A DNA stretch of 32,844 bases from an uncultured Candidatus Saccharibacteria bacterium (GCA_964613525.1 CAZTIN010000002.1:1-32844), one strand, 5' to 3'. Positions 2,931 to 22,886 are shown, counted from the first letter of the stretch. Program-made: numbers and translations. The notes: generated from the sequence alone by a model not told the origin.

Positions 2931-3266
2931 ATGCAAACAAAACAAAGAAAAGTTCTAGTCAACTGGAATAAGCTTTTCAAAAAATTAACTTTTACGGGCT
3001 ATGGTCAAGATTCTGACTACATAACCGTAGAACCCATGTCAAAGATCGAAGTCTTTCAAATCCGGGATATAGCAAATACCTTGGGTTTCAAAAATGATCT
3101 TTTTCATCCAGACCATAATGAATTGGGGTATTTTAGTAAATTAGACGAAAATTACAACATCCCACTGTTAAAAGAGTCTATTTTTTTAAAAGTCTATCAT
3201 TATGTTTATTCTAAAAATCGCAAATATTTCAAATACAACCTAATAGGTCATAGTAGGAAGAAATAA
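2931..3266 (+). CDS. hypothetical protein
   Basis: 111-aa ORF framed by its own canonical promoter and terminator. No family recognised. Confidence 0.5.
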   Translation: MQTKQRKVLVNWNKLFKKLTFTGYGQDSDYITVEPMSKIEVFQIRDIANTLGFKNDLFHPDHNELGYFSKLDENYNIPLLKESIFLKVYHYVYSKNRKYFKYNLIGHSRKK

Positions 3267-8164: not shown

Positions 8165-8797
8165 TTAATTTTGGTTTGGTTTTACTTCTTCTAATTCTGG
8201 ATATTTGTATTCACCAGGGAACATGTCTATTTTCTTAAAAGGATATAGTCTTACTAGTGCGCGACCGGTAGTTAACTTTATAGGTAGGAATCGCCAGTTT
8301 CTAGAATCATAACTCTCAGCTCTGTTGTCTCCCATCACAAATAGGCTGCCCTCGGGGACTATTATGTCTTCTAGTGATTCATAAGATCTATTTTTTACAT
8401 AAGGTTCGTCTAGTTTTAGTGTCCTGCCATCTTTAGTAATAACAGTTACTTCGCCATTGATTATTTGCAAAGTATCACCAGGTAATCCTATAACACGTTT
8501 TACAAAATGTTCTTTAGGGTTTCCAGGGAATTTAAATACTATTACTTCGCCACGTTTCGGACTACGTAAATGGTATGATAACTCATCAACTATAAGATAG
8601 TCGCTCTGATGTAAAGTCGGGTCCATAGACCTGCCTTTAACTAGGAATGGTTGCGCCACAAAAGCTCTGATAGGGATAACGATAACTAGAGCTAATATTA
8701 TGTACTTTATAATGTCCCAAATACTTTCTTTCTTCTTTTCTTCCGGTTTCTGATCTTTTTCAGGTGTATTATTAAATGTGTTTTTAATTATATTCAT
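8165..8797 (-). CDS. lepB: signal peptidase I (start moved to the internal ATG, MNIIKNT...)
   Basis: GRSMDPTL Ser box, KRVIGLPGD Lys box and GDNRAESYDSR. The upstream 45 codons of the track ORF would overlap pth and the promoters. Confidence 0.88.
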   Translation of the reverse strand: MNIIKNTFNNTPEKDQKPEEKKKESIWDIIKYIILALVIVIPIRAFVAQPFLVKGRSMDPTLHQSDYLIVDELSYHLRSPKRGEVIVFKFPGNPKEHFVKRVIGLPGDTLQIINGEVTVITKDGRTLKLDEPYVKNRSYESLEDIIVPEGSLFVMGDNRAESYDSRNWRFLPIKLTTGRALVRLYPFKKIDMFPGEYKYPELEEVKPNQN

Positions 8798-8807
8798 ATA
8801 CACGTCA

Positions 8808-8816
8808 AGTATAGCA
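8808..8816 (-). promoter_or_regulatory. extended -10 promoter TGcTATACT, 10 nt before the lepB ATG
   Basis: The minus strand reads TGCTATACT TGACGTGTAT ATG. Confidence 0.45.
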
Positions 8817-8860
8817 TGTAATTTGTTTGACAACAGTAGTTTTATATTTTTTAATTTATA

Positions 8861-8869
8861 TGTTATAAT
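8861..8869 (+). promoter_or_regulatory. extended -10 promoter TGtTATAAT, 6 nt before the pth ATG (leaderless)
   Basis: TGT plus TATAAT (8864-8869), gap GGTGTT, then ATG 8876. Confidence 0.55.
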
Positions 8870-8875
8870 GGTGTT

Positions 8876-9439
8876 ATGATACCAGTAATTGGGCTCGGAA
8901 ACCCTGGGAGAGAATATGAGAAAACCCGTCATAATGTGGGTTTTATGGTCTTGGACAAACTAGCCGAAGGCTATTCTTGGGATTATGATAAATACTTACT
9001 ATCAAACAAAACTCTTCTTAGGATAGATGACAAGGAAATGCTTCTCCTAAAGCCGGAAACTTTTATGAATGAATCCGGTAAAGTCCTAGAAGGAATCAAA
9101 AGAATTAACCCATACGCTATAAACAGTCTTGTGGTGGTTCATGATGAAATTGATCTACCTATTGGTGTAGTTAAAATTAATTATGACAGGGGAGACGGTG
9201 GTCATAATGGAATCCGTTCTATTAATCAGCATTTTGGTGGCAAGAACTATGTACGTGTACGTGTTGGAATATCAAAAACCGGTGATAATAGGGAAATCCA
9301 TAAACCAAACGTCTTAGGTGAGTTTGATAAAAATGATGCGGAATTGTTAGAAAAATCTATCAGTAAAGCAGTAGACGCGATTAAAGAAATATTAGTCTCA
9401 GGTAAAGACCTAGCAGCTAGTAAAATAAACCAAAAGTAA
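8876..9439 (+). CDS. pth: peptidyl-tRNA hydrolase
   Basis: VIGLGNPG..Y..TRHNVGF start and HDE.DLP.G... GHNG motifs. Confidence 0.95.
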   Translation: MIPVIGLGNPGREYEKTRHNVGFMVLDKLAEGYSWDYDKYLLSNKTLLRIDDKEMLLLKPETFMNESGKVLEGIKRINPYAINSLVVVHDEIDLPIGVVKINYDRGDGGHNGIRSINQHFGGKNYVRVRVGISKTGDNREIHKPNVLGEFDKNDAELLEKSISKAVDAIKEILVSGKDLAASKINQK

Positions 9440-12116: not shown

Positions 12117-14594
12117 ATGCCAAAAACACCAAAAAACCAAAACCCTGAAGAAGAAATCGTTCCTCAGACAGACCGCATCCAAAAACACGCTATTGTGTCT
12201 GAAATGCGTGAATCATACTTGGACTATGCAATGAGTGTTATCACTTCACGTGCTCTTCCTGATGTCCGTGATGGTCTTAAACCTGTGCACAGGCGTATTC
12301 TTTATGCGATGCATGAGATGGGTCTTACATCTGGATCAAGATTCCGTAAATCTGCAACAGTTGTGGGTGAAGTTTTAGGTAAATACCATCCTCATGGTGA
12401 TGCATCAGTTTATGATGCTATGGTTAACATGGCGCAAGATTTCTCTTACAGGTATCCATTAGTTACTGGTCAAGGTAACTTTGGCTCTATTGATGGTGAC
12501 GGAGCTGCTGCTATGCGTTATACCGAAGCAAGAATGTCCAAAGTCTCTTCCGTATTCTTGCAAGACCTGGAAAAAAATACTGTTAATTTCCGTCCAAACT
12601 ACGACCAAACAAAAAAAGAACCAGTAGTTTTGCCAGCTATGGTGCCTGGGTTACTACTAAACGGAACTTTGGGTATTGCTGTCGGTATGGCTACAAACAT
12701 TCCACCGCATAACCTAGGTGAAGTTATGGATGCGTGTATTCATTTTAATGATAATCCGGATTCAACCACAGAAGATCTAATGGAATTTATCCAAGGACCG
12801 GACTTTCCAACTGGTGCTGTTGCTTATAATAAAAAAGACATGCTCCATGCTTACCAAACAGGTCGCGGTGGTGTAACTGTACGCGGCGAAGCCGAAGTCA
12901 TAGAACAAAAAGGAGGACAATTCCAAATAATCGTAACTTCTTTACCGTACAGAGTAGTTAAAGCTAACTTTGTTGAATCTATTGCTGACCTAGTTCGCGA
13001 AAAGAAAATAGACGGTATCAAGGGTCTTCGTGATGAGTCTACTCGTGATATGCGCGTCGTTATTGACCTTAAAACCGGCGCTCATCCACAAAAGGTTTTG
13101 AATTATCTTTATAAACACACTCAATTAGAAAGTGTCTTCCACTACAACTTGGTGGCTCTTGTTGATGGTGTTCCACAAACACTGTCTCTTAAGACTTTCA
13201 TAGAAGAATTTATCAAACACCGTCGCGAAGTTATAGTCCGTCGTACTGAGTTTGATTTAGCAAAAGCCAAAGACCGCGAACACATTTTGCTCGGTCTTAA
13301 GAAGGCGCTGGATTTCATAGACGAAGTTATTAAGATAATTCGCGCTTCTAAAGACGGCGCTGCAGCAAAAGAAGCCCTAATAAAACGATTCAAATTTAGC
13401 GACCTGCAAGCTACCGCCATCCTGGAAATGAGACTCCAGAAACTAGCTGGACTTGAACGTAAGGCTGTAGAACTAGAACTGAAAGAAAAGCAAGAATTAA
13501 TTGCTGAACTTGAAAGTATTCTAAAAACTCCAAAGAAAGTTACTAAAATAATAGGTGATGAACTAAACCATATTAAGACTACATATAGTGATGACAGAAA
13601 GACAAAAATAGTAAAAGGTGGTCTTAAATCTATGAGCGACGAAGACCTAATCCCAGAGAAAGAATCTGTCTTGGTTTATACTGCTGGTGGTTATGTTAAA
13701 CGTACTGACCCAACAGAATACCGTAAACAAAATCGTGGCGGAATAGGTACTATTGATATCGAAACAAAAGAAGAAGATTTTGTAACAATGTTAGTCGATG
13801 CGAATACTCATGCTGATCTTTTATTCTTCACGAATCAGGGACGCGCTTACCAAATAAGAATGTTCGACATTCCAGAAGGTAAACGTGCCACAAAAGGTAA
13901 GTCAATTAATAATTTCCTTTCTTTAACAGGTGACGAAAAGGTTACTTCTATTTTACCTATCAGTAAAGGTGATAAATCTAAATATGAATCATTAATGCTA
14001 GTAACTAAACACGGTACAACTAAGAAAGTCGCTTATGAGTCATTCAAAGACGTGCGTCGTAGTGGTCTTATTGCGATTACTCTTGAAAAAGGTGATGAGC
14101 TTATATCAGTTATGGCTCTTGAAAAAGGTGACGATGTCTTGCTCGTAACCAAAGACGGTCAGTCTATTAGATTTACTGAATCTGATGTTCGTCAGATGGG
14201 CCGTGCCGCTGCAGGTGTTATCGGTATGAAGCTAAGCAAAGGTGATATTGTTATAGGTGTTAATGCTATTTCAAATAGTGCCGATACGAAAGATCTAACT
14301 ATACTAACAATCAGTGAAAAAGGTTTAGGTAAAAGAACAAAGCTTTCCGAATACAAAGTCCAGAAACGTGGAGGATCCGGAATTCTTACTGCTAAAGTTA
14401 CAGAAAAAACTGGTGAAATTATGTCAGCACGTATTGCAGGTAACGATGGTGAATTAATCGCTATTTCTAAGAAAGGCCAAACCATCAGGACTGACATAGG
14501 TTCTGTGCCAATACTCGGTAGGTCAACACAAGGCGTAACAATAATGAAGTTAAGAGCAGGTGATGCAATTGCGTCGCTGGCTGTACTAAGTTAG
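12117..14594 (+). CDS. gyrA: DNA gyrase subunit A
   Basis: [30 protein letters not shown], the catalytic Tyr context [10 protein letters not shown], and C-terminal beta-pinwheel repeats. Confidence 0.97.
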
Positions 14595-14596
14595 CT

Positions 14597-15106
14597 ATGA
14601 ATACATCTGTCGCAGATGTTATAAACGGACTACCTCTAAAGCAGAATTCTAAAATCCTAATAATCGGAGATTTACCTCTTCGGTATATAACTTTGTTTAC
14701 TGATAAAGTCGGTAACAATAATGTGACTCTGTTAAAGATTAAAAACGCAGAATCTAAAAAACACGATTTTAAAGAAATTTTCTATGACATTGATAATGGT
14801 AAAAAGCTACCTTTTCGCAGTGAGCTGTTCGATGTTTTGTTTGTGTTTCATACACTGCGCTATGTTATTTACAGAGAATCTCTATTAAAAGAATTTACTC
14901 GTATTTTAAAGCCAGGTGGTCTTAACGTTATCATTGAATCTAAAATTAATGCATTCAGTGCTAGTTCTCACCCTGATGCAAAAATAATTTTTGACGACAT
15001 GCTTGAATATCTAGACCGAGCAAACTTTCTTTTAGGTGAAAATTTTGACACTAATCAAGATGAATATGGTATTATAAGTATATGTCCTATTCGAGAATCA
15101 GAATAG
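14597..15106 (+). CDS. class I methyltransferase-fold protein with a degenerate SAM motif I
   Basis: LPF.SELFDVLFVFHTLRYV and LKPGG resemble Methyltransf_11, but motif I reads ILIIGDLPL with no GxGxG. It starts 2 nt after the gyrA stop. Confidence 0.5.
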   Translation: MNTSVADVINGLPLKQNSKILIIGDLPLRYITLFTDKVGNNNVTLLKIKNAESKKHDFKEIFYDIDNGKKLPFRSELFDVLFVFHTLRYVIYRESLLKEFTRILKPGGLNVIIESKINAFSASSHPDAKIIFDDMLEYLDRANFLLGENFDTNQDEYGIISICPIRESE

Positions 15107-15115
15107 CTAATTTGT

Positions 15116-16453
15116 ATGAATAAATTCCAAACAATTTTACTAATAGTTTTTGGTGTAGGTGCAATTTTTGCGGTTATGGTATTTGCCGGTTATATACCAA
15201 CACCAGCTAGTAAAACCAAAATCAAAGGCACAGGTACAGTAGTCATCTGGGGTACTCAAAATGAAGAAAGATTCGTATCTTATATGACAGACCTTGCCGA
15301 TGGTATTCAGGATTTTCGCATAGTTTATGTTCCGAAAGATGAATCAACTTATGAATCAGAACTAATAGAAGCTTTTGCTGCTGGTAAAGGTCCTGATATG
15401 TTCATGGTTACTAATGAAAATATGCTACGTTTTACTAACCAGATAGAACCAATAAGCTACGTTACTTTGCCTCAGAAGAATTTCATCAGTTCATACCCTA
15501 GCGCCTTCTCAGTATTCCTGACAGGTTCAGGTTCACTGGCTTATCCTTTGATGATTGACCCAATGGTGCTGTATTACAACAGGACATTACTTGCTAATGA
15601 TGGTATTGCTAATCCACCCAAATATTGGGATGAAGTACCGTTAATGGCTGAGAAACTAACCAAGCGTGACACTACTGGTGCGTTTCTGCAAAGCGCAATA
15701 GCTATGGGGCGATTTGAGAATATATCAAACGCTAAAGACATCATTGTACTGCTGCTAACTCAGGTAGGGAATAATATTGTAGGTATTAACAACGAAGGCT
15801 ACTATGTTTCAACTCTTGCGGAACATAGGACTTCTCTTGGTTTAACTTTGCCGGCGGTTATTAACTATTTCACAGATTTTGCTTCACCTGATTCTACTGT
15901 ATATTCTTGGAATAAAAGTTTGCCTGATGCAACCAGTTCATTCTTAACAGAAAGAGTTGCTCTTTATCCTGGCTTTGCTAGCGAATTATTTAACCTGCAG
16001 CAAAGAAATCCTAATTTAGCACTAGCTGTAACAGATATACCTCAGCCACGCGGATTTACTAATAAGAAAACCTATGCCAAAGTCACAGGTATTGCTCTTT
16101 CTAAATATAGTACAAACAAGCTAACGGCTCTTCTAACTATGCAAACTATTGGTAGTCCTTATCATGCAGCTAATATCGCAAAAGTTTTAGCACTGCCGTC
16201 ACCGTACAGTAGCGACTTGTTACAAAGCCCTGATCCTTCGCTGGCGTATCAAACAGTTCTTCAGTCAGCAGCACTGAGAGCCACATCTTTCCGTGACCCT
16301 GGAGCGTCTCAAACGATGGGTATTTTTAGAGAATTAACCCAAGCTATCTTGGCTGGTGGTGCTGATGCAGATGGAGCATATGATAGAGCCGATTCTGGAA
16401 TAACACTTCTCTTAACCAAGTTTAATCAGGCAGCAGTATCTCAAACAAATTAG
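15116..16453 (+). CDS. membrane-anchored extracellular solute-binding protein (SBP family 1-like)
   Basis: N-terminal TM anchor, then VVIWGT...AFAAGKGPDMFMV...YPLMIDPMVLYYNRTLL...PPKYWDEV, typical of MalE-type SBPs. Confidence 0.72.
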   Translation: MNKFQTILLIVFGVGAIFAVMVFAGYIPTPASKTKIKGTGTVVIWGTQNEERFVSYMTDLADGIQDFRIVYVPKDESTYESELIEAFAAGKGPDMFMVTNENMLRFTNQIEPISYVTLPQKNFISSYPSAFSVFLTGSGSLAYPLMIDPMVLYYNRTLLANDGIANPPKYWDEVPLMAEKLTKRDTTGAFLQSAIAMGRFENISNAKDIIVLLLTQVGNNIVGINNEGYYVSTLAEHRTSLGLTLPAVINYFTDFASPDSTVYSWNKSLPDATSSFLTERVALYPGFASELFNLQQRNPNLALAVTDIPQPRGFTNKKTYAKVTGIALSKYSTNKLTALLTMQTIGSPYHAANIAKVLALPSPYSSDLLQSPDPSLAYQTVLQSAALRATSFRDPGASQTMGIFRELTQAILAGGADADGAYDRADSGITLLLTKFNQAAVSQTN

Positions 16454-16454
16454 T

Positions 16455-18761
16455 ATGAAATTTAGGAAAATTTTTCTAACTTTAATAATTGCTTCTTTTG
16501 TTTATATTTTACCTAATTTTGCCAGTGCAGAGATTGTTTTACCTTGTTCACGCGGAACAGCACAAATGTGTGGCTTTAATGATGTTTTTACTCTAATCAA
16601 TAATTTGATAAAGTTTTTCCTCAGTTATGTACTACTACCTCTATCTATAATATTAGTAAGTTATGCTGGATGGCTATTTATGACATCTGGGGGCAATGAA
16701 AGTAAGCGCACTCAAGCTAAAGCCATATTTAAAAACTTGCTCATAGGTATAGCAATATTCCTTTTGGCTTGGTCTATAGTTTATTTTGTATTCAAGGCTT
16801 TTGGGGTAAAAGGTAGTAATGGTCTGTCTGATAAAACTGTCGACTGGAAAGTCGACGGTTCTTCTTTACCACAAATTAATACGGGTACTCAGAGCTCTGG
16901 CCAAAATAACAATAGCAGTAATAATTCCAGTAATCAGGTATTAACCAGCTATGCTGCTACTATTACTTACAATGCAGTAGTTCCTAGCAGTACTCGCGCT
17001 ACTGTAACAATAACTCCAAAAGCACCTTATGAAATGGCAATTCGTATGAAATGTATAGATAGGCTTAGTGGAGATACTGCTACTGGCGAAGCCAAGATAG
17101 CTTCGGGTAGTAGCGTGACAACTATTGTAATTGACCTACAAGAAGAGACAGAATATTCTTGCGCTCTTGAGAATATCGAAGGTCAAATTAAAATGAATGA
17201 TATAACAGATTCAGAAATAATGACCCCTAGGGTTTCTCCAGTAACGGGCGATTTTACTTTTTCTGGTGGTAGTTTCGACTCAGACGAAAATACTATAAAT
17301 ATTCGCTACCGTAATGCTGACAAGCTTTACTCTAGTTCTGGATTTCTTTCTTGTTTTGATTCTACTAATTCAAGAAATTTATTTAACATGTCTGGTATTT
17401 TACTAAATAGGGAAAAGGGTAGTGACTTGCGTTATGCTACATATAATCTACCTTCTAATTTTTCTAGTACTCTGGAAGATAATATTAATGTTAGTTGTAG
17501 TTTCTATACTTATACCCTGGTTAATAAAATAATAACTGAAACAGAAAATAAGTTTACAGGTACTATAAAATCAACTAAAAAAATCCAAAGTATTAAAACC
17601 AGATTCCTAGTAACAGAGAAGCAAATAGGTCAGGACAGCGTAACTATTATATTTAATGGGTCTATAAACATAAATCCTAATTTGTCTTTGGCTTGTTATT
17701 CGAATAATTCGAACCATGTTTTTAGAACACGCGCTACTTTTGACCCAACTACAAATTCCAGGCTTTCACAGGCAATGAATCCGTCTTTTAATAAAGATTC
17801 TATTTATGCACCAATTACGATACCGGTAGCATGGTTCGGCTATGGTCTTAGGCCAGGGTCAGTTTACTCTTGTAATTTAGAAGGAGAAACTCTTGAAAAA
17901 GTCTCTGGTTACGAAGATCAAGTAGTTACTAAACATAATCATTCGTTTAGTCTTAGTACTCCTTTAATTCCAGCACCTATTAAATTAGAATCAAAACTCG
18001 ATTACTATGTTTCCATTGGAGTACCAAGAATTGTTTATGTAAACTATCCATATGTAAAACCAGTAAATGTGCTATCAGGCGGGCCTTATTTATCAGAATC
18101 GCAGTTCAGGCAGCCTATACCAGATTCTATTTTTGTACCAGTTACAAATGGGCTTGTTGTAGATAATTCTCGTATGAACATGGTATGTACTTCTATTGTT
18201 GGTCCAGCAGCTGGGACAACCTATAGTACGCTAGTCTCAGTGTCTGAGACTCAGTCTGCTGATACTTTTGGAATTGCTCAGGTGTATGGAGCTAATAATA
18301 ATCTTGGCTCTGGATTCAGTATACCGATAGTCAGGACTCCGCGAGGTGGATTTATGCATTCGTCCGTATATGCTTGTATGCTGGGGTTTACAGTAGGCTC
18401 TGTGCCTCAGATTAGGTCATTTATGGCATCAGTCCCTATTAGTATCGATCCAACTGAAATTGGCCCTATAAACCTATCAGTCGAAAATATAAATGCTGAT
18501 AAAAGTTACGCAAACTTTACTATAGTTGCATCACCTCGTATCGAAAATAGTGTAAAATATACTTGTAGACATCCGTCTGGTAACTATACAGGCGAAGCAT
18601 ACTGGCCGCCGCAAGCTCTGGGTATAAGAATGCCTGTAGCCATTCCTGTTATGAGTAGCTTGCCAGGATTAAAGCCAGCCACAAATTATAGCTGCACATT
18701 AGAAGGTTCCACCTATCAGAAACAAATCGTAGAATATCAGTTTAATATACAAACACCTTAA
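16455..18761 (+). CDS. TrbC/VirB2-like pilin module (aa 1-118) fused to a large extracellular domain of Cys-pair modules
   Basis: Signal peptide (..NFASA/EI), a two-TM hairpin with loop SGGNESKRTQAK, an N/S-rich linker, then five modules each closed by a Cys pair. See findings. Confidence 0.6.
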   Translation: MKFRKIFLTLIIASFVYILPNFASAEIVLPCSRGTAQMCGFNDVFTLINNLIKFFLSYVLLPLSIILVSYAGWLFMTSGGNESKRTQAKAIFKNLLIGIAIFLLAWSIVYFVFKAFGVKGSNGLSDKTVDWKVDGSSLPQINTGTQSSGQNNNSSNNSSNQVLTSYAATITYNAVVPSSTRATVTITPKAPYEMAIRMKCIDRLSGDTATGEAKIASGSSVTTIVIDLQEETEYSCALENIEGQIKMNDITDSEIMTPRVSPVTGDFTFSGGSFDSDENTINIRYRNADKLYSSSGFLSCFDSTNSRNLFNMSGILLNREKGSDLRYATYNLPSNFSSTLEDNINVSCSFYTYTLVNKIITETENKFTGTIKSTKKIQSIKTRFLVTEKQIGQDSVTIIFNGSININPNLSLACYSNNSNHVFRTRATFDPTTNSRLSQAMNPSFNKDSIYAPITIPVAWFGYGLRPGSVYSCNLEGETLEKVSGYEDQVVTKHNHSFSLSTPLIPAPIKLESKLDYYVSIGVPRIVYVNYPYVKPVNVLSGGPYLSESQFRQPIPDSIFVPVTNGLVVDNSRMNMVCTSIVGPAAGTTYSTLVSVSETQSADTFGIAQVYGANNNLGSGFSIPIVRTPRGGFMHSSVYACMLGFTVGSVPQIRSFMASVPISIDPTEIGPINLSVENINADKSYANFTIVASPRIENSVKYTCRHPSGNYTGEAYWPPQALGIRMPVAIPVMSSLPGLKPATNYSCTLEGSTYQKQIVEYQFNIQTP
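16941..18758 (+). repeat. five divergent protein-level modules (about 85-135 aa), each with one Cys pair and three ending in a (P)xxxYSCxLEG-like motif
   Basis: Cys pairs at aa 200/236, 300/348, 414/473, 578/641 and 704/747. The recurring motifs are ETEYSCALEN, PGSVYSCNLEG and PATNYSCTLEG. The DNA itself is not repeated. Confidence 0.55.
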
Positions 18762-18762
18762 T

Positions 18763-19323
18763 ATGAAAAGATTTTACATGTACATATTGTTTGCATTGAT
18801 CTTACCTACATTAGGTTATGCTCAGTTTACTGGGTTTAATGATGAGACTGGACTAAGCGTGCCAATGTATTCAGTGGATAATACATTCATAGGTAATAAC
18901 GGTGATGTTATTTCAAACGATGCAAGCAAATATACTAATGATGCAAATATTACAACCAGTGCAGAAGTTAACATAAACGTTGCAGGAAGTAACAGAATTT
19001 GCAGTATAGGACGTAAGACATTCGCTTCATATGTTGACTATGTAGGCTGTATTGTGCGAGTTTCTATACTACCATTTATATTTACTCTTGCTCTCCTGGC
19101 ATTTATTTGGGGAGTAACAGTAATGATTAGGCATCCGGATAACCAGGAGTCTCAAAAAGAAGGAAGGATCTTTATACTGTGGGGGATTATTGGATTCTTC
19201 GTTATAACATCAGTTTATGCGCTAGTGGCAATAATTAGGAGAACAGTTGGTTTCGGGTCTAATTTTAAAGATGATGCCACACCTTATGTACAATTAAAAG
19301 AAAAAGTGCAAAAATTAAAATAG
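18763..19323 (+). CDS. TrbC/VirB2-like pilin-family protein with an N-terminal Asn-rich extension
   Basis: Signal peptide (..LGYA/QF), a Cys pair CSIGRKTFASYVDYVGC, and a two-TM hairpin with loop HPDNQESQKEGR, ending in IIRRTVGFG. Confidence 0.55.
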   Translation: MKRFYMYILFALILPTLGYAQFTGFNDETGLSVPMYSVDNTFIGNNGDVISNDASKYTNDANITTSAEVNINVAGSNRICSIGRKTFASYVDYVGCIVRVSILPFIFTLALLAFIWGVTVMIRHPDNQESQKEGRIFILWGIIGFFVITSVYALVAIIRRTVGFGSNFKDDATPYVQLKEKVQKLK

Positions 19324-19324
19324 T

Positions 19325-19711
19325 ATGAAGAAAATAATTTTAAGTATGATCCTGGCATTCTCAGTTATACTGCCTACCTCTGTAGCTTTGGCTGACGACA
19401 ATGCTTTTGAATTAAATGTAGGCATAGAGAATCCTCTTGGTAGCGGTAAAGACAATATAAAGGACATAATAGCTTCTATAATGAAAGTCATAGTAGACAT
19501 TGCTATACCAATAGTTGTGGTAATGGTAATATATTCAGGATTCCTGCTTGTTATGGCTCAGGGTAACCCTGATAAATTAAAAGAAGCCAAAAAGACTATT
19601 ACCTGGACTCTGGTTGGGGCAACCATACTACTAGGCGCCCAGCTTATATCAACAGTACTTGTTGAAACAGTCTCGAATGTTTCAAAAGACGCAGTCTCGT
19701 CTACTAAATAA
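19325..19711 (+). CDS. TrbC/VirB2-like pilin-family protein
   Basis: Signal peptide (..SVALA/DD), an amphipathic helix, TM helix, loop AQGNPDKLKEAKK, then a second TM helix. Confidence 0.6.
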   Translation: MKKIILSMILAFSVILPTSVALADDNAFELNVGIENPLGSGKDNIKDIIASIMKVIVDIAIPIVVVMVIYSGFLLVMAQGNPDKLKEAKKTITWTLVGATILLGAQLISTVLVETVSNVSKDAVSSTK

Positions 19712-19724
19712 GTTATTCACAACA

Positions 19725-19753
19725 GGGCCCAATTACATGCAGTAATTGGGCCC
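19725..19753 (+). other. GC-rich 12-bp hairpin without a U-tract inside the pilin cluster
   Basis: GGGCCCAATTAC (19725-19736) pairs perfectly with GTAATTGGGCCC (19742-19753) around a 5-nt loop. It is followed by AATGTG rather than a T-run. Confidence 0.6.
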
Positions 19754-19757
19754 AATG

Positions 19758-19766
19758 TGTTATAAT
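19758..19766 (+). promoter_or_regulatory. extended -10 promoter TGtTATAAT
   Basis: TGT plus TATAAT (19761-19766). The gap to ATG 19802 is 35 nt. Confidence 0.55.
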
Positions 19767-19801
19767 ATATACATATTAGTATAAATTAATTGTTAATTAT
19801 T

Positions 19802-20200
19802 ATGCGTAAATTTATTGCTCCGGCTCTTGGTTTCTTTTTACCTGTTTTGGCAATGGCACAAAATATAAACGTTGGACCAGCTTATACTGGTAACCAAAAT
19901 GTGTTCACACTGCTTGCTACAGGTCAGAGTCTAATGAACCTATTAATCCGTGTTCTTGTGGGTTTTGCGGTTCTTATGATTATCGTAGGTGTTGTTCAGT
20001 TTATAATAGCTGGTTCAAAAGGTGATTCTGCTGCTTCAGGTAAAGCTAAAAGTACAATACTATACGGTGTATTAGGTCTTTTCGTTATTACAACTATCTG
20101 GGGACTTGTAGGTATCGTGCGTCGTACACTTGGTACTGGTACACCTGGTTCATCTGATGTTGTACTTCCTTGTGTTCCTGGTCAAGACCAGAACTGTTAG
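19802..20200 (+). CDS. TrbC/VirB2-like pilin-family protein (start at ATG 19802, MRKF...)
   Basis: Signal peptide (..VLAMA/QN), a two-TM hairpin with loop AGSKGDSAASGKAK, the motif IVRRTLGTG, and a C-terminal Cys pair CVPGQDQNC. Confidence 0.6.
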   Translation: MRKFIAPALGFFLPVLAMAQNINVGPAYTGNQNVFTLLATGQSLMNLLIRVLVGFAVLMIIVGVVQFIIAGSKGDSAASGKAKSTILYGVLGLFVITTIWGLVGIVRRTLGTGTPGSSDVVLPCVPGQDQNC

Positions 20201-20213
20201 TATCTAATGTCTT

Positions 20214-20462
20214 ATGACTACTAATAGTATTATTGGTTCATTAATTCAACATATCGTTCAGCCTGGGATAAAGCTAATGTTTATCGTTGCTATCCTAGTA
20301 TTTGTCTGGGGTGTAGTAGAAATGATAATGAATGCCGGTAATCAAACCGCCAGAGAAAAGGGAACAAGACATATGATGTGGGGGCTAATAGGACTATTTG
20401 TAATGTTTGCGGTATACGGAATATTAAACTTTCTAGTGGACACGCTGCGAGGTGTAGCATAA
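20214..20462 (+). CDS. TrbC/VirB2-like pilin-family protein lacking a signal peptide
   Basis: 82 aa. Amphipathic N-terminus, TM helix, loop NAGNQTAREKGTR, then a second TM helix. Confidence 0.5.
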   Translation: MTTNSIIGSLIQHIVQPGIKLMFIVAILVFVWGVVEMIMNAGNQTAREKGTRHMMWGLIGLFVMFAVYGILNFLVDTLRGVA

Positions 20463-20503: not shown

Positions 20504-20507
20504 TATG

Positions 20508-20580
20508 TGCCCCGTGAGGGGATCGAACCCCCGACCATCTCCTTAAGAGGGAGCTGCTCTACCAGCTGAGCTAACAGGGC
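20508..20580 (-). tRNA. tRNA-Lys (anticodon CTT)
   Basis: Hand-folded 73-nt cloverleaf: acceptor GCCCTGT/ACGGGGC, anticodon loop CTCTTAA, T-loop TTCGATC. No encoded CCA. Confidence 0.85.
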
Positions 20581-20757
20581 GGAATTAGCACTTTATTATG
20601 ACTCTGTACTTCTGCATTGATCTGTATATCTATCAAAACAGCTAACAGGGTATGTAAAATCTTTGTTTAAAAAATTACTAAATCAGTTTACACCATAAAT
20701 CTGCAAAAATCAACAAACTATTGAATTTTATTTGAAAATAGTATAAAGTATATCCAT

Positions 20758-20839
20758 GCCGAGGTGGCGAAATTGGTAGACGCACTTGCCTTAGGAGCAA
20801 GCGGGGTGACCCATGGAGGTTCAAGTCCTCTCCTCGGCA
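20758..20839 (+). tRNA. tRNA-Leu (anticodon TAG)
   Basis: 82 nt. Acceptor GCCGAGG/CCTCGGC, anticodon stem-loop CTTGC CTTAGGA GCAAG, long variable arm, T-loop TTCAAGT. Confidence 0.85.
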
Positions 20840-20852
20840 CTAGTACTTTTGC

Positions 20853-20938
20853 GCCCGAGTGATGGAATGGTAGACATAGGGGACTTAAAATCCCCAGATC
20901 GTAAGGTCGTGTGGGTTCGAGTCCCACCTCGGGCACCA
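20853..20938 (+). tRNA. tRNA-Leu (anticodon TAA), the only tRNA here with an encoded CCA
   Basis: Acceptor GCCCGAG/CTCGGGC, anticodon stem-loop GGGGA CTTAAAA TCCCC, long variable arm, T-loop TTCGAGT, then ACCA. Confidence 0.85.
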
Positions 20939-20951
20939 GTCTCGAGAAAGC

Positions 20952-21023
20952 GACCCAGTCGCCAAGTGGTAAGGCCAGGGTCTGCAAAACCCTTATACGG
21001 CGGTTCGATTCCGCCCTGGGTCT
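20952..21023 (+). tRNA. tRNA-Cys (anticodon GCA)
   Basis: 72 nt. Acceptor GACCCAG/CTGGGTC, discriminator T, anticodon stem-loop AGGGT CTGCAAA ACCCT, T-loop TTCGATT. Confidence 0.85.
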
Positions 21024-21034
21024 CAATATGTAAA

Positions 21035-21066
21035 GAAAAAGCCAGGATTTATTCCTGGTTTTTTTC
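21035..21066. terminator. bidirectional terminator shared by the tRNA array (+) and rbfA (-)
   Basis: CCAGGA (21042-21047) pairs with TCCTGG (21054-21059). An A-run lies on the left and a T7 run on the right. The rbfA stop codon lies in the loop. Confidence 0.7.
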
Positions 21067-21387
21067 TTGCATTTCTATTTCTGTAATTCTTCTTGCTAAC
21101 TTTTCACCTTTGTCTATTGCTACATCTACAAAAGGTATGCGAGCGATAGGTAGGTTCTTCATTATTTCTTTACGAATTTCGTTGCGCTTTCTTTTTAGGA
21201 AGTCTAGCGCTACTTCTTCTTCCTTTTCTGGAATTACGGTAAAGAATATAGTTGCTTTGTCTCCGCGTTCGTTAGTATCAACAGTGGTAACTGTTATTAT
21301 AGATTTACCATTGGATTCACGGCTAATGTATTTTGACACAATTTCCTTAACGCGTGATTTTATTTGGGTGTTTCTGAATTCTGACAT
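21049..21387 (-). CDS. rbfA: ribosome-binding factor A
   Basis: 112 aa with an RbfA-like pattern (R..R....I.......I....), placed 2 nt downstream of infB in the conserved infB-rbfA order. Confidence 0.85.
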   Translation of the reverse strand: MSEFRNTQIKSRVKEIVSKYISRESNGKSIITVTTVDTNERGDKATIFFTVIPEKEEEVALDFLKRKRNEIRKEIMKNLPIARIPFVDVAIDKGEKLARRITEIEMQEKNQE

Positions 21388-21389
21388 AT

Positions 21390-22886
21390 TTACTGTATTT
21401 CTTTAACTATAGCTTCTAGTGTATCACCAGTCGCTAGTGTAATCTTGGTTTCTATTTGGGCGCCACATTCGTCACCCTCGAATACTTCTTTAGTTTTACT
21501 TTTGTTATGCTGGAGTTCAGTAACCTTACCAATAGCAATTTCATTATCACGTCTTAGTACGCGCACCGTAGAGCCTAATTTAATAGAACCCGATTGTACT
21601 TTACCACCAATGACTTGTTTTTCTTTTGTTTGATTGAATAGCTTTAGGATTTTTAGTGAGCCTACTTCTACTTGAACTTCTTTACGAGGACGTCTTTTTT
21701 CTAGTTCTTCTTCTAGCCATTCGGTTAGTTTGTAAATAATATCAAAAGTCATTACAGTTACTGACATTTGGTCGCGAACATCTTCTGCTTTGCGGTCAAT
21801 GTTGACATGGAACCCAACTATAATAGTATCTTTGTCAGCTGTGGCCATTTTAATATCGTTTTCGGATACATTACCTACGGCTGATTTCACAACATGAAAA
21901 CCATTCTCTTCGTTATTTAGCTTAGCAACTTCTTTTTCTATAGCTTCTATTGAACCTACAGTATCAGCTTTTATCATCAGTGGAATAGAGAATTCGCTTG
22001 TTTTTTCAGATATTCTGTTTTTAATTTCTTTTGATTGTTTATTAGCAGCAACTGCTTTTTCAGCTTCTTTCTTTGTATCAAATACTTCAAAATATGAACC
22101 CACCGGAGGAACAGTGTCAAAACCAACTACATTGATAGGGGACGAACAGTAGCTTTCTGTAATAGTCTTACCCATGAAATTTTCCATTATACGGGTTGAT
22201 ACCATAGACTCGCCAGCTACAATAAAAGAGCCTTTTTTAAGCGTACCTTCTTTTAGTATTAGTGTTGCTGTAATGCCACGCTTGGTATCAAGATGTGATT
22301 CAAGCACGATACCTTCAGCTCTTTTAGATAGGTCAGCGCGCATATCATTGAACTCAGCCACGAACAATATTAGGTCTAGTAGATTGTTTATTCCTTCTCC
22401 TGTTACAGCTGAAATCGCCACATGTGGAATATCTCCACCCATGCCTTCCAGGTATATACCGTGCTCTAATAGGGTATTCTTTGTCCTATCGACATTTGCT
22501 CCGGGTTTGTCTATTTTGTTTATAGCTACTATGTAGGGTATACCTGATTCTTTTATAGCTTCTAATGCTTCTAGTGTTTGAGCTTTTACTCCATCTTCTG
22601 CAGACACTACTAATATTGCTATATCGGCAGCACTAGCCCCGCGTACACGCATAGACGTAAAAGCCGCATGTCCTGGAGTATCCAGGAATGTTATTTTCTT
22701 TAGGTCTCCATTTTCTGTTTCGTGGAGTACTTCGTATGCTGCAATGTGTTGAGTAATACCACCAGATTCTCCAGCAACTACGTTTGATTTTCTTATGTAG
22801 TCTAAAAGTGTTGATTTACCATGGTCCACATGTCCCATAACAGAAACAACCGGTGGACGTGCAATTATTTTCGTCTTTTCTCCCAT
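21390..22886 (-). CDS. infB: translation initiation factor IF-2, short form lacking the long N-terminal region
   Basis: The G domain starts at aa 10 (RPPVVSVMGHVDHGKSTLLD, DTPGH, NKID). The IF-2 domains II, C1 and C2 follow. Confidence 0.95.
   Translation of the reverse strand: MGEKTKIIARPPVVSVMGHVDHGKSTLLDYIRKSNVVAGESGGITQHIAAYEVLHETENGDLKKITFLDTPGHAAFTSMRVRGASAADIAILVVSAEDGVKAQTLEALEAIKESGIPYIVAINKIDKPGANVDRTKNTLLEHGIYLEGMGGDIPHVAISAVTGEGINNLLDLILFVAEFNDMRADLSKRAEGIVLESHLDTKRGITATLILKEGTLKKGSFIVAGESMVSTRIMENFMGKTITESYCSSPINVVGFDTVPPVGSYFEVFDTKKEAEKAVAANKQSKEIKNRISEKTSEFSIPLMIKADTVGSIEAIEKEVAKLNNEENGFHVVKSAVGNVSENDIKMATADKDTIIVGFHVNIDRKAEDVRDQMSVTVMTFDIIYKLTEWLEEELEKRRPRKEVQVEVGSLKILKLFNQTKEKQVIGGKVQSGSIKLGSTVRVLRRDNEIAIGKVTELQHNKSKTKEVFEGDECGAQIETKITLATGDTLEAIVKEIQ

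Follow-up and report, generated by a model that had tools for sequence, protein, structure and literature searches.

A 32,844-nucleotide (nt) stretch of DNA from an uncultured Candidatus Saccharibacteria bacterium (GCA_964613525.1 CAZTIN010000002.1:1-32844; hereafter the window) was found to encode, at positions 16455-18761 on the plus strand, a VirB2-type pilin of 768 amino acids (aa) whose C-terminal part is predicted to form a stalk of five fibronectin type III (FN3)-like modules, designated M1 to M5. Arrays of VirB2-like pilins are known from the Patescibacteria; what appears to be new is an array member that carries a large FN3-like stalk. The gene was confirmed to be real and conserved, the same fusion of pilin and stalk being present in orthologues from independent assemblies. 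With respect to function, the reading preferred here, to which a probability of about 0.4 was given, is that of a low-copy modular VirB2-type pilin that, together with short paralogous pilins, builds a filament and sits along it, at its tip or at its base, with M4-M5 directed toward the host envelope.

Anatomy of the pilin and its stalk

The gene is a single uninterrupted frame of 768 codons started by ATG, and its base composition is uniform along its length. Kyte-Doolittle analysis limited hydrophobic segments to aa 1-29, 47-78 and 87-119; the loop between the latter two is basic (4 K/R versus 1 D/E), and a cleavage-type site, ASA/E, lies at aa 23-26. The Pfam family PF18895 (T4SS_pilin, for type IV secretion system (T4SS) pilin) matched aa 44-112 with E=5.3e-9 and 36.5 bits, passing the gathering cut-off of 26.6, and precomputed PF18895 annotation was present on all orthologues from the first homologue search. 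AlphaFold2 (AF2) modelled the hairpin as two long helices, aa 40-77 and 82-115. An earlier note, made from the sequence alone, had described a signal peptide followed by a pilin-type transmembrane hairpin with the pair Cys31/Cys39; hydropathy, PF18895 and the AF2 model bore this out. By its hidden Markov model (HMM) match and hairpin anatomy the protein is assigned to PF18895, and it breaks the family's small-size rule: at 768 aa, with 650 aa past the hairpin, it is far from the small single-domain PF18895 proteins of about 80-190 aa.

The N-terminus, a Sec-type signal peptide followed by a two-helix hairpin, is not that of a type IV pilin with its class III signal peptide and alpha-1 helix, and the protein gave no VirB5-type Pfam or NCBIfam match. 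No Pfam match was obtained for aa 160-768. The C-terminus (...YQFNIQTP) has no LPXTG sorting signal, no hydrophobic segment follows aa 119, and there is no C-terminal anchor. The parts of the protein are listed below, with the confidence of the AF2 models given as the predicted local distance difference test score (pLDDT).

16455..16529 (+): Sec-type signal peptide, aa 1-25 (...NFASA/EIV), from hydropathy and the ASA/E site.
16530..16808 (+): VirB2-like pilin hairpin, aa 26-118, from PF18895, the AF2 helices and hydropathy; it contains the Cys31/Cys39 pair, helix 1 (about aa 40-77), the basic loop TSGGNESKRTQAKAIFKN and helix 2 (about aa 82-115).
16809..16940 (+): linker, aa 119-162, pLDDT <30; a juxtamembrane motif, then a low-complexity part rich in N and S.
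16941..17240 (+): M1, aa 163-262, predicted FN3-like beta-sandwich of 7-8 strands (AF2 pLDDT 75-86), Cys200/Cys236, motif TEYSCALEN.
17241..17588 (+): M2, aa 263-378, predicted beta-sandwich (AF2 pLDDT 71-86), Cys300/Cys348; the least conserved module, which can be lost.
17589..17963 (+): M3, aa 379-503, FN3-like in the AF2 model, Cys414/Cys473, motif GYGLRPGSVYSCNLEG; a paralogue of M5.
17964..18458 (+): M4, aa 504-668, predicted enlarged beta-sandwich with two long loops (core pLDDT 80-90 in the nine-sequence AF2 model), Cys578/Cys641.
18459..18761 (+): M5, aa 669-768 and the stop codon, predicted distal FN3-like module (pLDDT 81-93), Cys704/Cys747, motif LPGLKPATNYSCTLEG.

Twelve cysteines are present in the protein, at residues 31, 39, 200, 236, 300, 348, 414, 473, 578, 641, 704 and 747. 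The approximately 600 aa C-terminal of the linker contain exactly ten of these, arranged as five local pairs, every one at the position given in the earlier note. The linker rich in N and S that had been placed at about aa 141-162 was located as the low-complexity stretch GTQSSGQNNNSSNNSSNQ, aa 144-161. The juxtamembrane motif G-x-x-GLSD-x-T-x-x-W is nearly invariant among orthologues, including the forms with a single module, with G120, G123, L124 and W131 invariant or nearly so.

The full-length AF2 model, generated from five sequences with a mean pLDDT of 58.6, contained beta-sandwiches in M1 (aa 167-256), M2 (aa 268-371), M3 (aa 384-501) and M5 (aa 674-766) at pLDDT 70-86 and left aa 508-671, the M4 region, unmodelled (pLDDT 25-30). 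In a second model, of aa 490-768 from nine orthologues (mean pLDDT 75.1, predicted template modelling score 0.59), M4 was also predicted to fold into a beta-sandwich, its core at pLDDT 80-90 and its two long loops at low confidence; the motifs VPV-NG-VVD and GFMHSS-Y-C are invariant in this module. Seven strands per module were predicted, as in the FN3 beta-sandwich, and the top Foldseek probability was 1.0. Searched against the PDB, the full-length model matched tandem FN3 arrays (fibronectin 3t1w, E=7.8e-9; contactins; gp130) and further the repeat of a bacterial large adhesion protein (6xi3) and MG-domain proteins, and M4 with M5 matched the FN3 pairs of CD148, fibronectin FN10-12 and neogenin, as well as RbmA and SiiE. 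Probabilities for these matches to tandem FN3- or immunoglobulin (Ig)-like stalks were 0.99-1.0; among viral structures only generic FN3/Ig matches were found. The repeated FN3/Ig-like beta-sandwich modules suspected in the earlier note were thus recovered, AF2 folding all five and Foldseek matching them to tandem FN3 arrays.

Sequence comparison did not return a known family for the stalk. Pfam scans of the single modules at E<=1 gave no fn3 (PF00041) match and nothing above any threshold, the sole module match being a sub-threshold one between M1 and Cadherin-like (17.8 bits versus 24.2). A sequence search of the PDB with the stalk profile gave 0 matches, and with the pilin profile only spurious matches to transmembrane segments of G-protein-coupled receptors. 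The stalk resembles FN3 in its predicted fold, falls outside PF00041 and represents an uncharacterised family.

The F-strand signature L-x-P-x-T-x-Y-x-hydrophobic, with its tyrosine corner, is present in M1, M3 and M5; M4 has a shorter Y-x-C, and M2 is without the Tyr. The recurring F-strand-like motif noticed earlier around three of the second cysteines was found where it had been described, as LQEETEYSCALEN, LRPGSVYSCNLEG and LKPATNYSCTLEG at aa 228-240, 465-477 and 739-751. The second Cys of each pair lies two residues past the conserved Tyr. Both models put the pairs on the third and sixth strands, the first Cys close to where the third ends and the second close to where the sixth begins; the pairs are therefore predicted to lie on FN3 strands C and F, which are adjacent in that fold. 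The B-F disulfides of the earlier note did not hold: by the predicted strands, the canonical Ig B-F pair occurs in none of the five modules.

Orthologues, conservation and the pilin array

The first homologue search returned four full-length relatives of 41-61% identity, each from another assembly. When 1.84 billion representative proteins were searched exhaustively with an HMM of the stalk, ten proteins only were returned, comprising three more five-module forms (728-781 aa), a 611-aa form without M2 (P0009), two proteins of 250-255 aa consisting of pilin, linker and M1 only (P0012 and P0013), a 203-aa fragment, a protein of 3,741 aa (P0010) and one true FN3 protein of borderline E. Further word-index searches yielded nothing new, either with the alignment (A3) or with the bare pilin domain, which did not recover the query itself. 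Contig scans added the loci L003-L009. Altogether, full-length orthologues of 38-63% identity were present in at least ten independent Saccharibacteria assemblies from different projects, and all relatives were from metagenome-assembled genomes of uncultured Candidatus Saccharibacteria. The number of modules, for which variation between strains had been raised as a possibility, is indeed 1, 4 or 5.

The cysteines and the Y-x-C F-strand motif, whose conservation the earlier note had left to be checked, proved conserved in alignments of 5 and 11 sequences. All 12 of 12 Cys columns were invariant in the five-sequence alignment (41-63% identity), and in the 11-sequence alignment, where the signal peptide was also kept, every Cys was invariant wherever its module exists. 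Among the eight five-module orthologues, 99 of the 606 stalk columns were invariant; because this is only about 16% of the C-terminal columns, the chance probability of ten specified columns all being invariant is approximately 1e-8, assuming independence. Such invariance of the Cys pairs would be expected of domains that are extracellular and oxidised. Averaged over pairs of five-module orthologues, the identity of each part was as follows.

Pilin hairpin: 0.63, the most conserved part.
Linker: 0.33.
M1: 0.43.
M2: 0.26.
M3: 0.44.
M4: 0.47.
M5: 0.61, the most conserved module.

Conserved ends with a variable middle that can be lost would fit an anchor, a spacer and a functional tip.

Irregular orthologues were observed. 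In P0005 and P0008 / L005 9407-11785, some 28 additional residues (…TDTTYLNERIAEYQKNHPGTSPEDAKK…) separate the equivalents of Cys31 and Cys39, giving a larger loop ahead of helix 1. The orthologue at L009 3016-5174 has a broken N-terminus, tblastn similarity beginning at 3016 and the longest open reading frame (ORF) at a TTG at 3120, within helix 1. Possible reasons are a frameshift, decay to a pseudogene and an error in the assembly.

The joining of a pilin to a multi-domain stalk might have arisen as a chimera of assembly or gene calling, and the Cys spacing by chance. This explanation was ruled out, as the same fusion occupies the same syntenic slot in independent assemblies. The ORF is uninterrupted and even in composition, the fusion and its length class recur in the ten or more assemblies, the cysteines are invariant, and no evidence in support of a chimera was found.

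Judged from profile comparisons, the modules are old and divergent. M3 and M5 were the only clearly homologous pair (hhalign 97.3%, E=2e-11), in agreement with the earlier observation that the modules are divergent and not the product of recent duplication. A link between M3 and M4 was weak (E=8e-4), and M1 had in common with M3 and M5 only a 12-column F-strand motif. The F-strand region of M5 aligned to a PF00041-positive protein, P0014 (hhalign 92%, 22 columns). Outside the family, the only close sequence relative of a module was the 98-aa repeat of P0010, which was homologous to M1 (hhalign 86.7%, E=4e-6), and the stapled FN3-like module therefore exists beyond the pilin fusion. P0010 itself is an alanine-rich giant of 3,741 aa in which a 98-aa unit recurs in tandem at least 35 times; every unit contains a Cys pair and the sequence YSCVANQT.

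At every locus examined the gene occupies the same slot, preceded by gyrA, a methyltransferase gene and a gene for a solute-binding protein (SBP) and followed by short pilins; adjacency to the SBP gene was seen at L001, L002 and L005-L009. In the window, the co-directional run around the 768-aa gene consists of the following genes.

12117-14594 (+): gyrA.
14597-15106 (+): small methyltransferase.
15116..16453 (+): membrane-anchored SBP_bac_8 solute-binding protein (E=3e-16), ending 1 nt before the 768-aa gene.
18763..19323 (+): pilin 2, 186 aa, hairpin at aa 106-156 after an N-terminal extension; PF18895 E=1.6e-5, 25.4 bits, just below the cut-off.
19325..19711 (+): pilin 3, 128 aa; PF18895 E=2.7e-9, TrbC/VirB2 PF04956 E=1.3e-6.
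19790..20200 (+): pilin 4, 136 aa, with a C-terminal Cys pair; PF18895 E=2.3e-7.
20214..20462 (+): pilin 5, 82 aa, a bare hairpin; PF18895 E=4e-10 and alignment.

The orthologue of pilin 2 at L001 is annotated as PF18895. The five hairpins of the array share 14-27% identity with one another. All five pilins gave sub-threshold matches to NCBIfam NF045849, the 'pilin-like conjugal transfer protein' of a Mycoplasma integrative and conjugative element (18-34 bits versus 40), which fit the proposed mating-pair formation (MPF)-FATA ancestry and monoderm link. Pilin 5 is without a signal peptide, unlike pilins 1-4.

A second member of the array is extended in relatives. At five related loci pilin 3 is 403-667 aa in length and has a Cys-pair stalk of its own, of 270-540 aa, made of tandem modules of about 100 aa with one Cys pair each.

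L005 12492-13838: extended pilin 3.
L006 3962-5383: extended pilin 3.
L007 4140-6143: extended pilin 3.
L008 8108-9427: extended pilin 3.
L009 5733-6944: extended pilin 3.

The pilin 3 of L005 gave a sub-threshold match to SH3_3 (23.1 bits versus a cut-off of 27). No homology between the pilin-3 stalk modules and M1-M5 was detectable by HMM, and the stalks of pilins 1 and 3 are thus either independent acquisitions or diverged beyond recognition. Together with the varying number of modules, the stalks of pilin 3 suggest that grafting of stalks onto pilins is a recurring habit of the array.

Proposed function and its alternatives

From the sequence, the Sec signal peptide of the 768-aa protein is predicted to be removed and the two-helix hairpin to lie in the cytoplasmic membrane, with the basic loop inside and both termini outside; this orientation of the loop would make the C-terminal 650 aa extracellular. 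The ectodomain would then comprise the flexible N/S-rich linker and five FN3-like beta-sandwich modules, each with one conserved Cys pair, and with a C-F disulfide per module it would form a rod of roughly 20 nm. We infer that, through its hairpin, the protein enters one assembly with the four short pilins encoded directly downstream and is a minor subunit there, that the stalk projects from the pilus or the pilus base, and that the strongly conserved M4-M5 contact a ligand on the envelope of the host bacterium. The adhesin function that other T4SSs assign to a separate protein (VirB5, PrgB) would thereby be supplied within the pilin. VirB2/TraA pilins are arranged in the F, pED208 and T pili with the loop between the helices facing the lumen and the ends of the chain exposed on the filament surface. 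Assembly with an appendage at the C-terminus is thus permitted by the topology, and the appendage would point outward.

The four PF18895 paralogues immediately downstream, as in the reported Saccharimonadia VirB2 arrays, argue for this proposal. On this reading the stalk is displayed outside the cell, probably for contact or adhesion. The label adhesin, like a role as tip or anchor, is offered as a reasoned hypothesis, and the protein could be the missing adhesin of the pilus-like apparatus of Saccharibacteria. A broader form of the proposal, of which we are doubtful, is a conjugative-type filament in which host recognition is built into the pilins themselves by interchangeable, disulfide-stapled FN3-like stalks, on pilin 1 and, in relatives, on pilin 3. 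In that case such modular pilins would sit along or at the tip of the pilus associated with the T4SS and determine the host envelopes available to the epibiont for docking, and the protein would be the first modular pilin of the VirB2 family and account for the adhesin that surveys of the Patescibacteria missed.

Several points weigh against a modular filament pilin. No VirB4, VirB6, PrgI/VirB3 or other T4SS machinery was found in the window, nor in the flanking regions of L001 and L002. Pfam and profile searches recognised no binding-domain family among M1-M5, and the models rest on 5-9 sequences only, the disulfide geometry being a prediction. A 65-kDa appendage on every subunit would crowd the VirB2-type helical lattice, so that assembly is assumed to be plausible at low copy only. 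M5 is the most conserved module, host-specific adhesin tips are usually variable, and M5 could instead bind a self component. The essential array of Southlakia epibionticum lies inside a T4SS cluster and has short pilins only (PMC10633639), and filament formation by PF18895 proteins in the Patescibacteria has been described only as a 'potential to elaborate conjugative pili' (PMC12857230).

Some of these points would be explained if the protein were not a filament subunit and were a membrane-anchored surface protein with the hairpin as a two-helix anchor, a possibility we consider doubtful. The linker and five-module rod, about 20-30 nm long, would span the cell wall or S-layer and expose M4-M5 at the surface. 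In that position the protein could mediate adhesion, act as a spacer where epibiont and host meet or work together with the SBP encoded beside it. T4SS machinery is absent within 16 kb on either side of the gene, the membrane-anchored SBP gene 1 nt upstream is tightly packed against it and always syntenic, and the hairpin would be the only attachment, since there is no C-terminal anchor. The bulky appendage would presumably be hard to fit in a VirB2 lattice, and the strong conservation of M5 would suit a module that binds a conserved component, either self or envelope. However, the hairpin is as conserved as those of bona fide array pilins (0.63), whereas a generic anchor would be expected to drift, and the gene is always first, with four more PF18895 pilins after it. 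In addition, the equivalent arrays of S. epibionticum are essential components of the T4SS cluster (PMC10633639).

It is improbable, in our analysis, that the protein is instead an exported precursor, in which the hairpin would act as an export or targeting module and the stalk would be cleaved near the juxtamembrane motif at aa 119-131. The stalk would be released as a secreted protein or a wall-associated fibre, and the hairpin would mature like other pilins. The near-invariance of the motif after helix 2, in one-module forms too, is consistent with such a site, the rest of the linker being unconserved. C-terminal trimming is generally known in the VirB2/TrbC family, RP4 TrbC and Ti VirB2 both undergoing C-terminal processing. 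No TraF-like protease or cyclase is encoded at the locus, however, the only peptidase in the window being a general signal peptidase of family S26 (8165-8932), and a role in packing or as an interaction surface would account equally well for the juxtamembrane motif.

Known systems and further features of the locus

In a survey of 3,035 Patescibacteria genomes, arrays of 2-11 VirB2-like pilins with an average identity of 25% were abundant in Saccharimonadia, and no adhesins were detected (PMC12102498). The array of S. epibionticum is essential, and its members SEML1_0014-0019 are 103-185 aa in length (PMC10633639, Table S1); the 'secreted protein array' of TM7x was described as 'small hypothetical proteins' (PMC7427843). 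The T4SS-like system and array are essential for epibiotic growth in the only genetically tractable Saccharibacterium, and their function has been called completely unknown (PMC10633639, PMC11665869, PMC12102498). The statement of the earlier note that a stalk borne by a pilin is unlike a classical T4SS agrees with this literature, which contains small pilins and no adhesin (PMC12102498, PMC7427843, PMC10633639). No mention of VirB2-type pilins with large appended domains was found in a limited literature search, in which absence is not proof.

The array in the window resembles those of S. epibionticum and TM7x in its PF18895/PF04956 matches, its divergent tandem paralogues, the Sec signal peptide and the two-helix hairpin, and pilins 2-4 parallel SEML1_0015, 0018 and 0019 in size and domain matches. 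It differs in its first member, which is 768 aa with a five-module stalk here whereas the members in S. epibionticum and TM7x are small, and in its surroundings: the S. epibionticum array is found inside a VirB4/VirB6 cluster by dnaA, and the present one by the gyrA, methyltransferase and SBP genes. A location of the S. epibionticum ML1 array next to gyrA was considered and is not the case, so the organisation of the present locus is clade-specific.

Conceptually, the nearest counterparts are the modular pilins PilB and PilC of Streptococcus sanguinis, which also combine a pilin module with bulky functional domains at low copy in an adhesive filament (PMC8179133, PMC9934059). The likeness is of mechanism only, as the pilin family is unrelated: the signal peptide of those type IV pilins is of class III, they possess only one long alpha-1 helix, and a type IV pilus machine assembles them. 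The proposed role is that of VirB5, TraC and CagL, an adhesive element on a conjugative-type pilus; the VirB5 proteins, however, are separate and mostly helical, whereas the stalk is predicted to be all-beta and is part of the pilin covalently. PrgB-type proteins share the monoderm context and an Ig-like or beta-sandwich stalk displayed for cell-cell contact, but are anchored by a C-terminal LPXTG and sortase, where the 768-aa protein would be anchored N-terminally by its pilin hairpin; PrgB homologues were not found in the Patescibacteria (PMC12102498).

In predicted fold and in the beads-on-a-string arrangement, the stalk is like the large adhesion protein (6xi3), SiiE (2yn3), RbmA (4be5) and eukaryotic FN3 arrays, and it shares with FN3 arrays the F-strand motif L-x-P-x-T-x-Y and module ends in T-P. 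Typical FN3 domains are without a Cys pair, whereas M1-M5 each have a conserved pair on predicted strands C and F. The Pam pili of Ca. Mycosynbacter amalyticus are likewise from Saccharibacteria, with extracellular Ig-like modules whose paired cysteines have been proposed to stabilise filaments for host contact (bioRxiv 10.64898/2026.03.03.709456). By their description the Pam pilins are set apart as soluble, Sec-exported proteins that assemble by donor-strand exchange and have no VirB2-type hairpin. Identity with the Pam pilus was ruled out by the same description, since Pam is a different, donor-strand-exchange system.

The stalked pilin is a concrete candidate for the means by which the T4SS-like apparatus reaches or recognises a host cell. 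It would extend the concept of the modular pilin, documented for type IV pili, to the unrelated VirB2/TraA family, and it defines an uncharacterised FN3-like module, predicted to be disulfide-stapled, from which at least one giant repeat protein is also built.

The 32.8-kb window is otherwise a low-GC (about 37%) housekeeping region with hisS, def, fmt, a signal peptidase gene, pth, an S1 protein gene, gyrA, infB, rbfA, clpB, alr, miaA and murA, and with six tRNA genes. No ABC permease or ATPase gene is found near the SBP gene; the SBP may be functionally coupled to the pilin array. Two putative regulatory elements lie between pilins 3 and 4.

19725..19753 (+): 12-bp GC-rich hairpin, from a scan for terminator-like structures.
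19758..19766 (+): extended -10 box TGTTATAAT, by consensus match only a putative promoter of pilins 4-5 inside the array.

The 84-nt region of the hairpin has a fold energy of -29.3 kcal/mol, and of 7 orthologous spacers separating pilins 3 and 4, 6 contain a TGnTATAAT box. The hairpin and the conserved element after it suggest two transcription units, pilins 4-5 having one of their own, possibly a stronger one, and pilins 1-3 being expressed differently. Such a division would favour the proposal that the 768-aa protein is a minor subunit. Directly after the array, at 20507-21024, are four tRNA genes, Lys-CTT on the minus strand and Leu-TAG, Leu-TAA and Cys-GCA on the plus strand, which are overlapped by the spurious ORFs 20718-21026 and 20813-21406.

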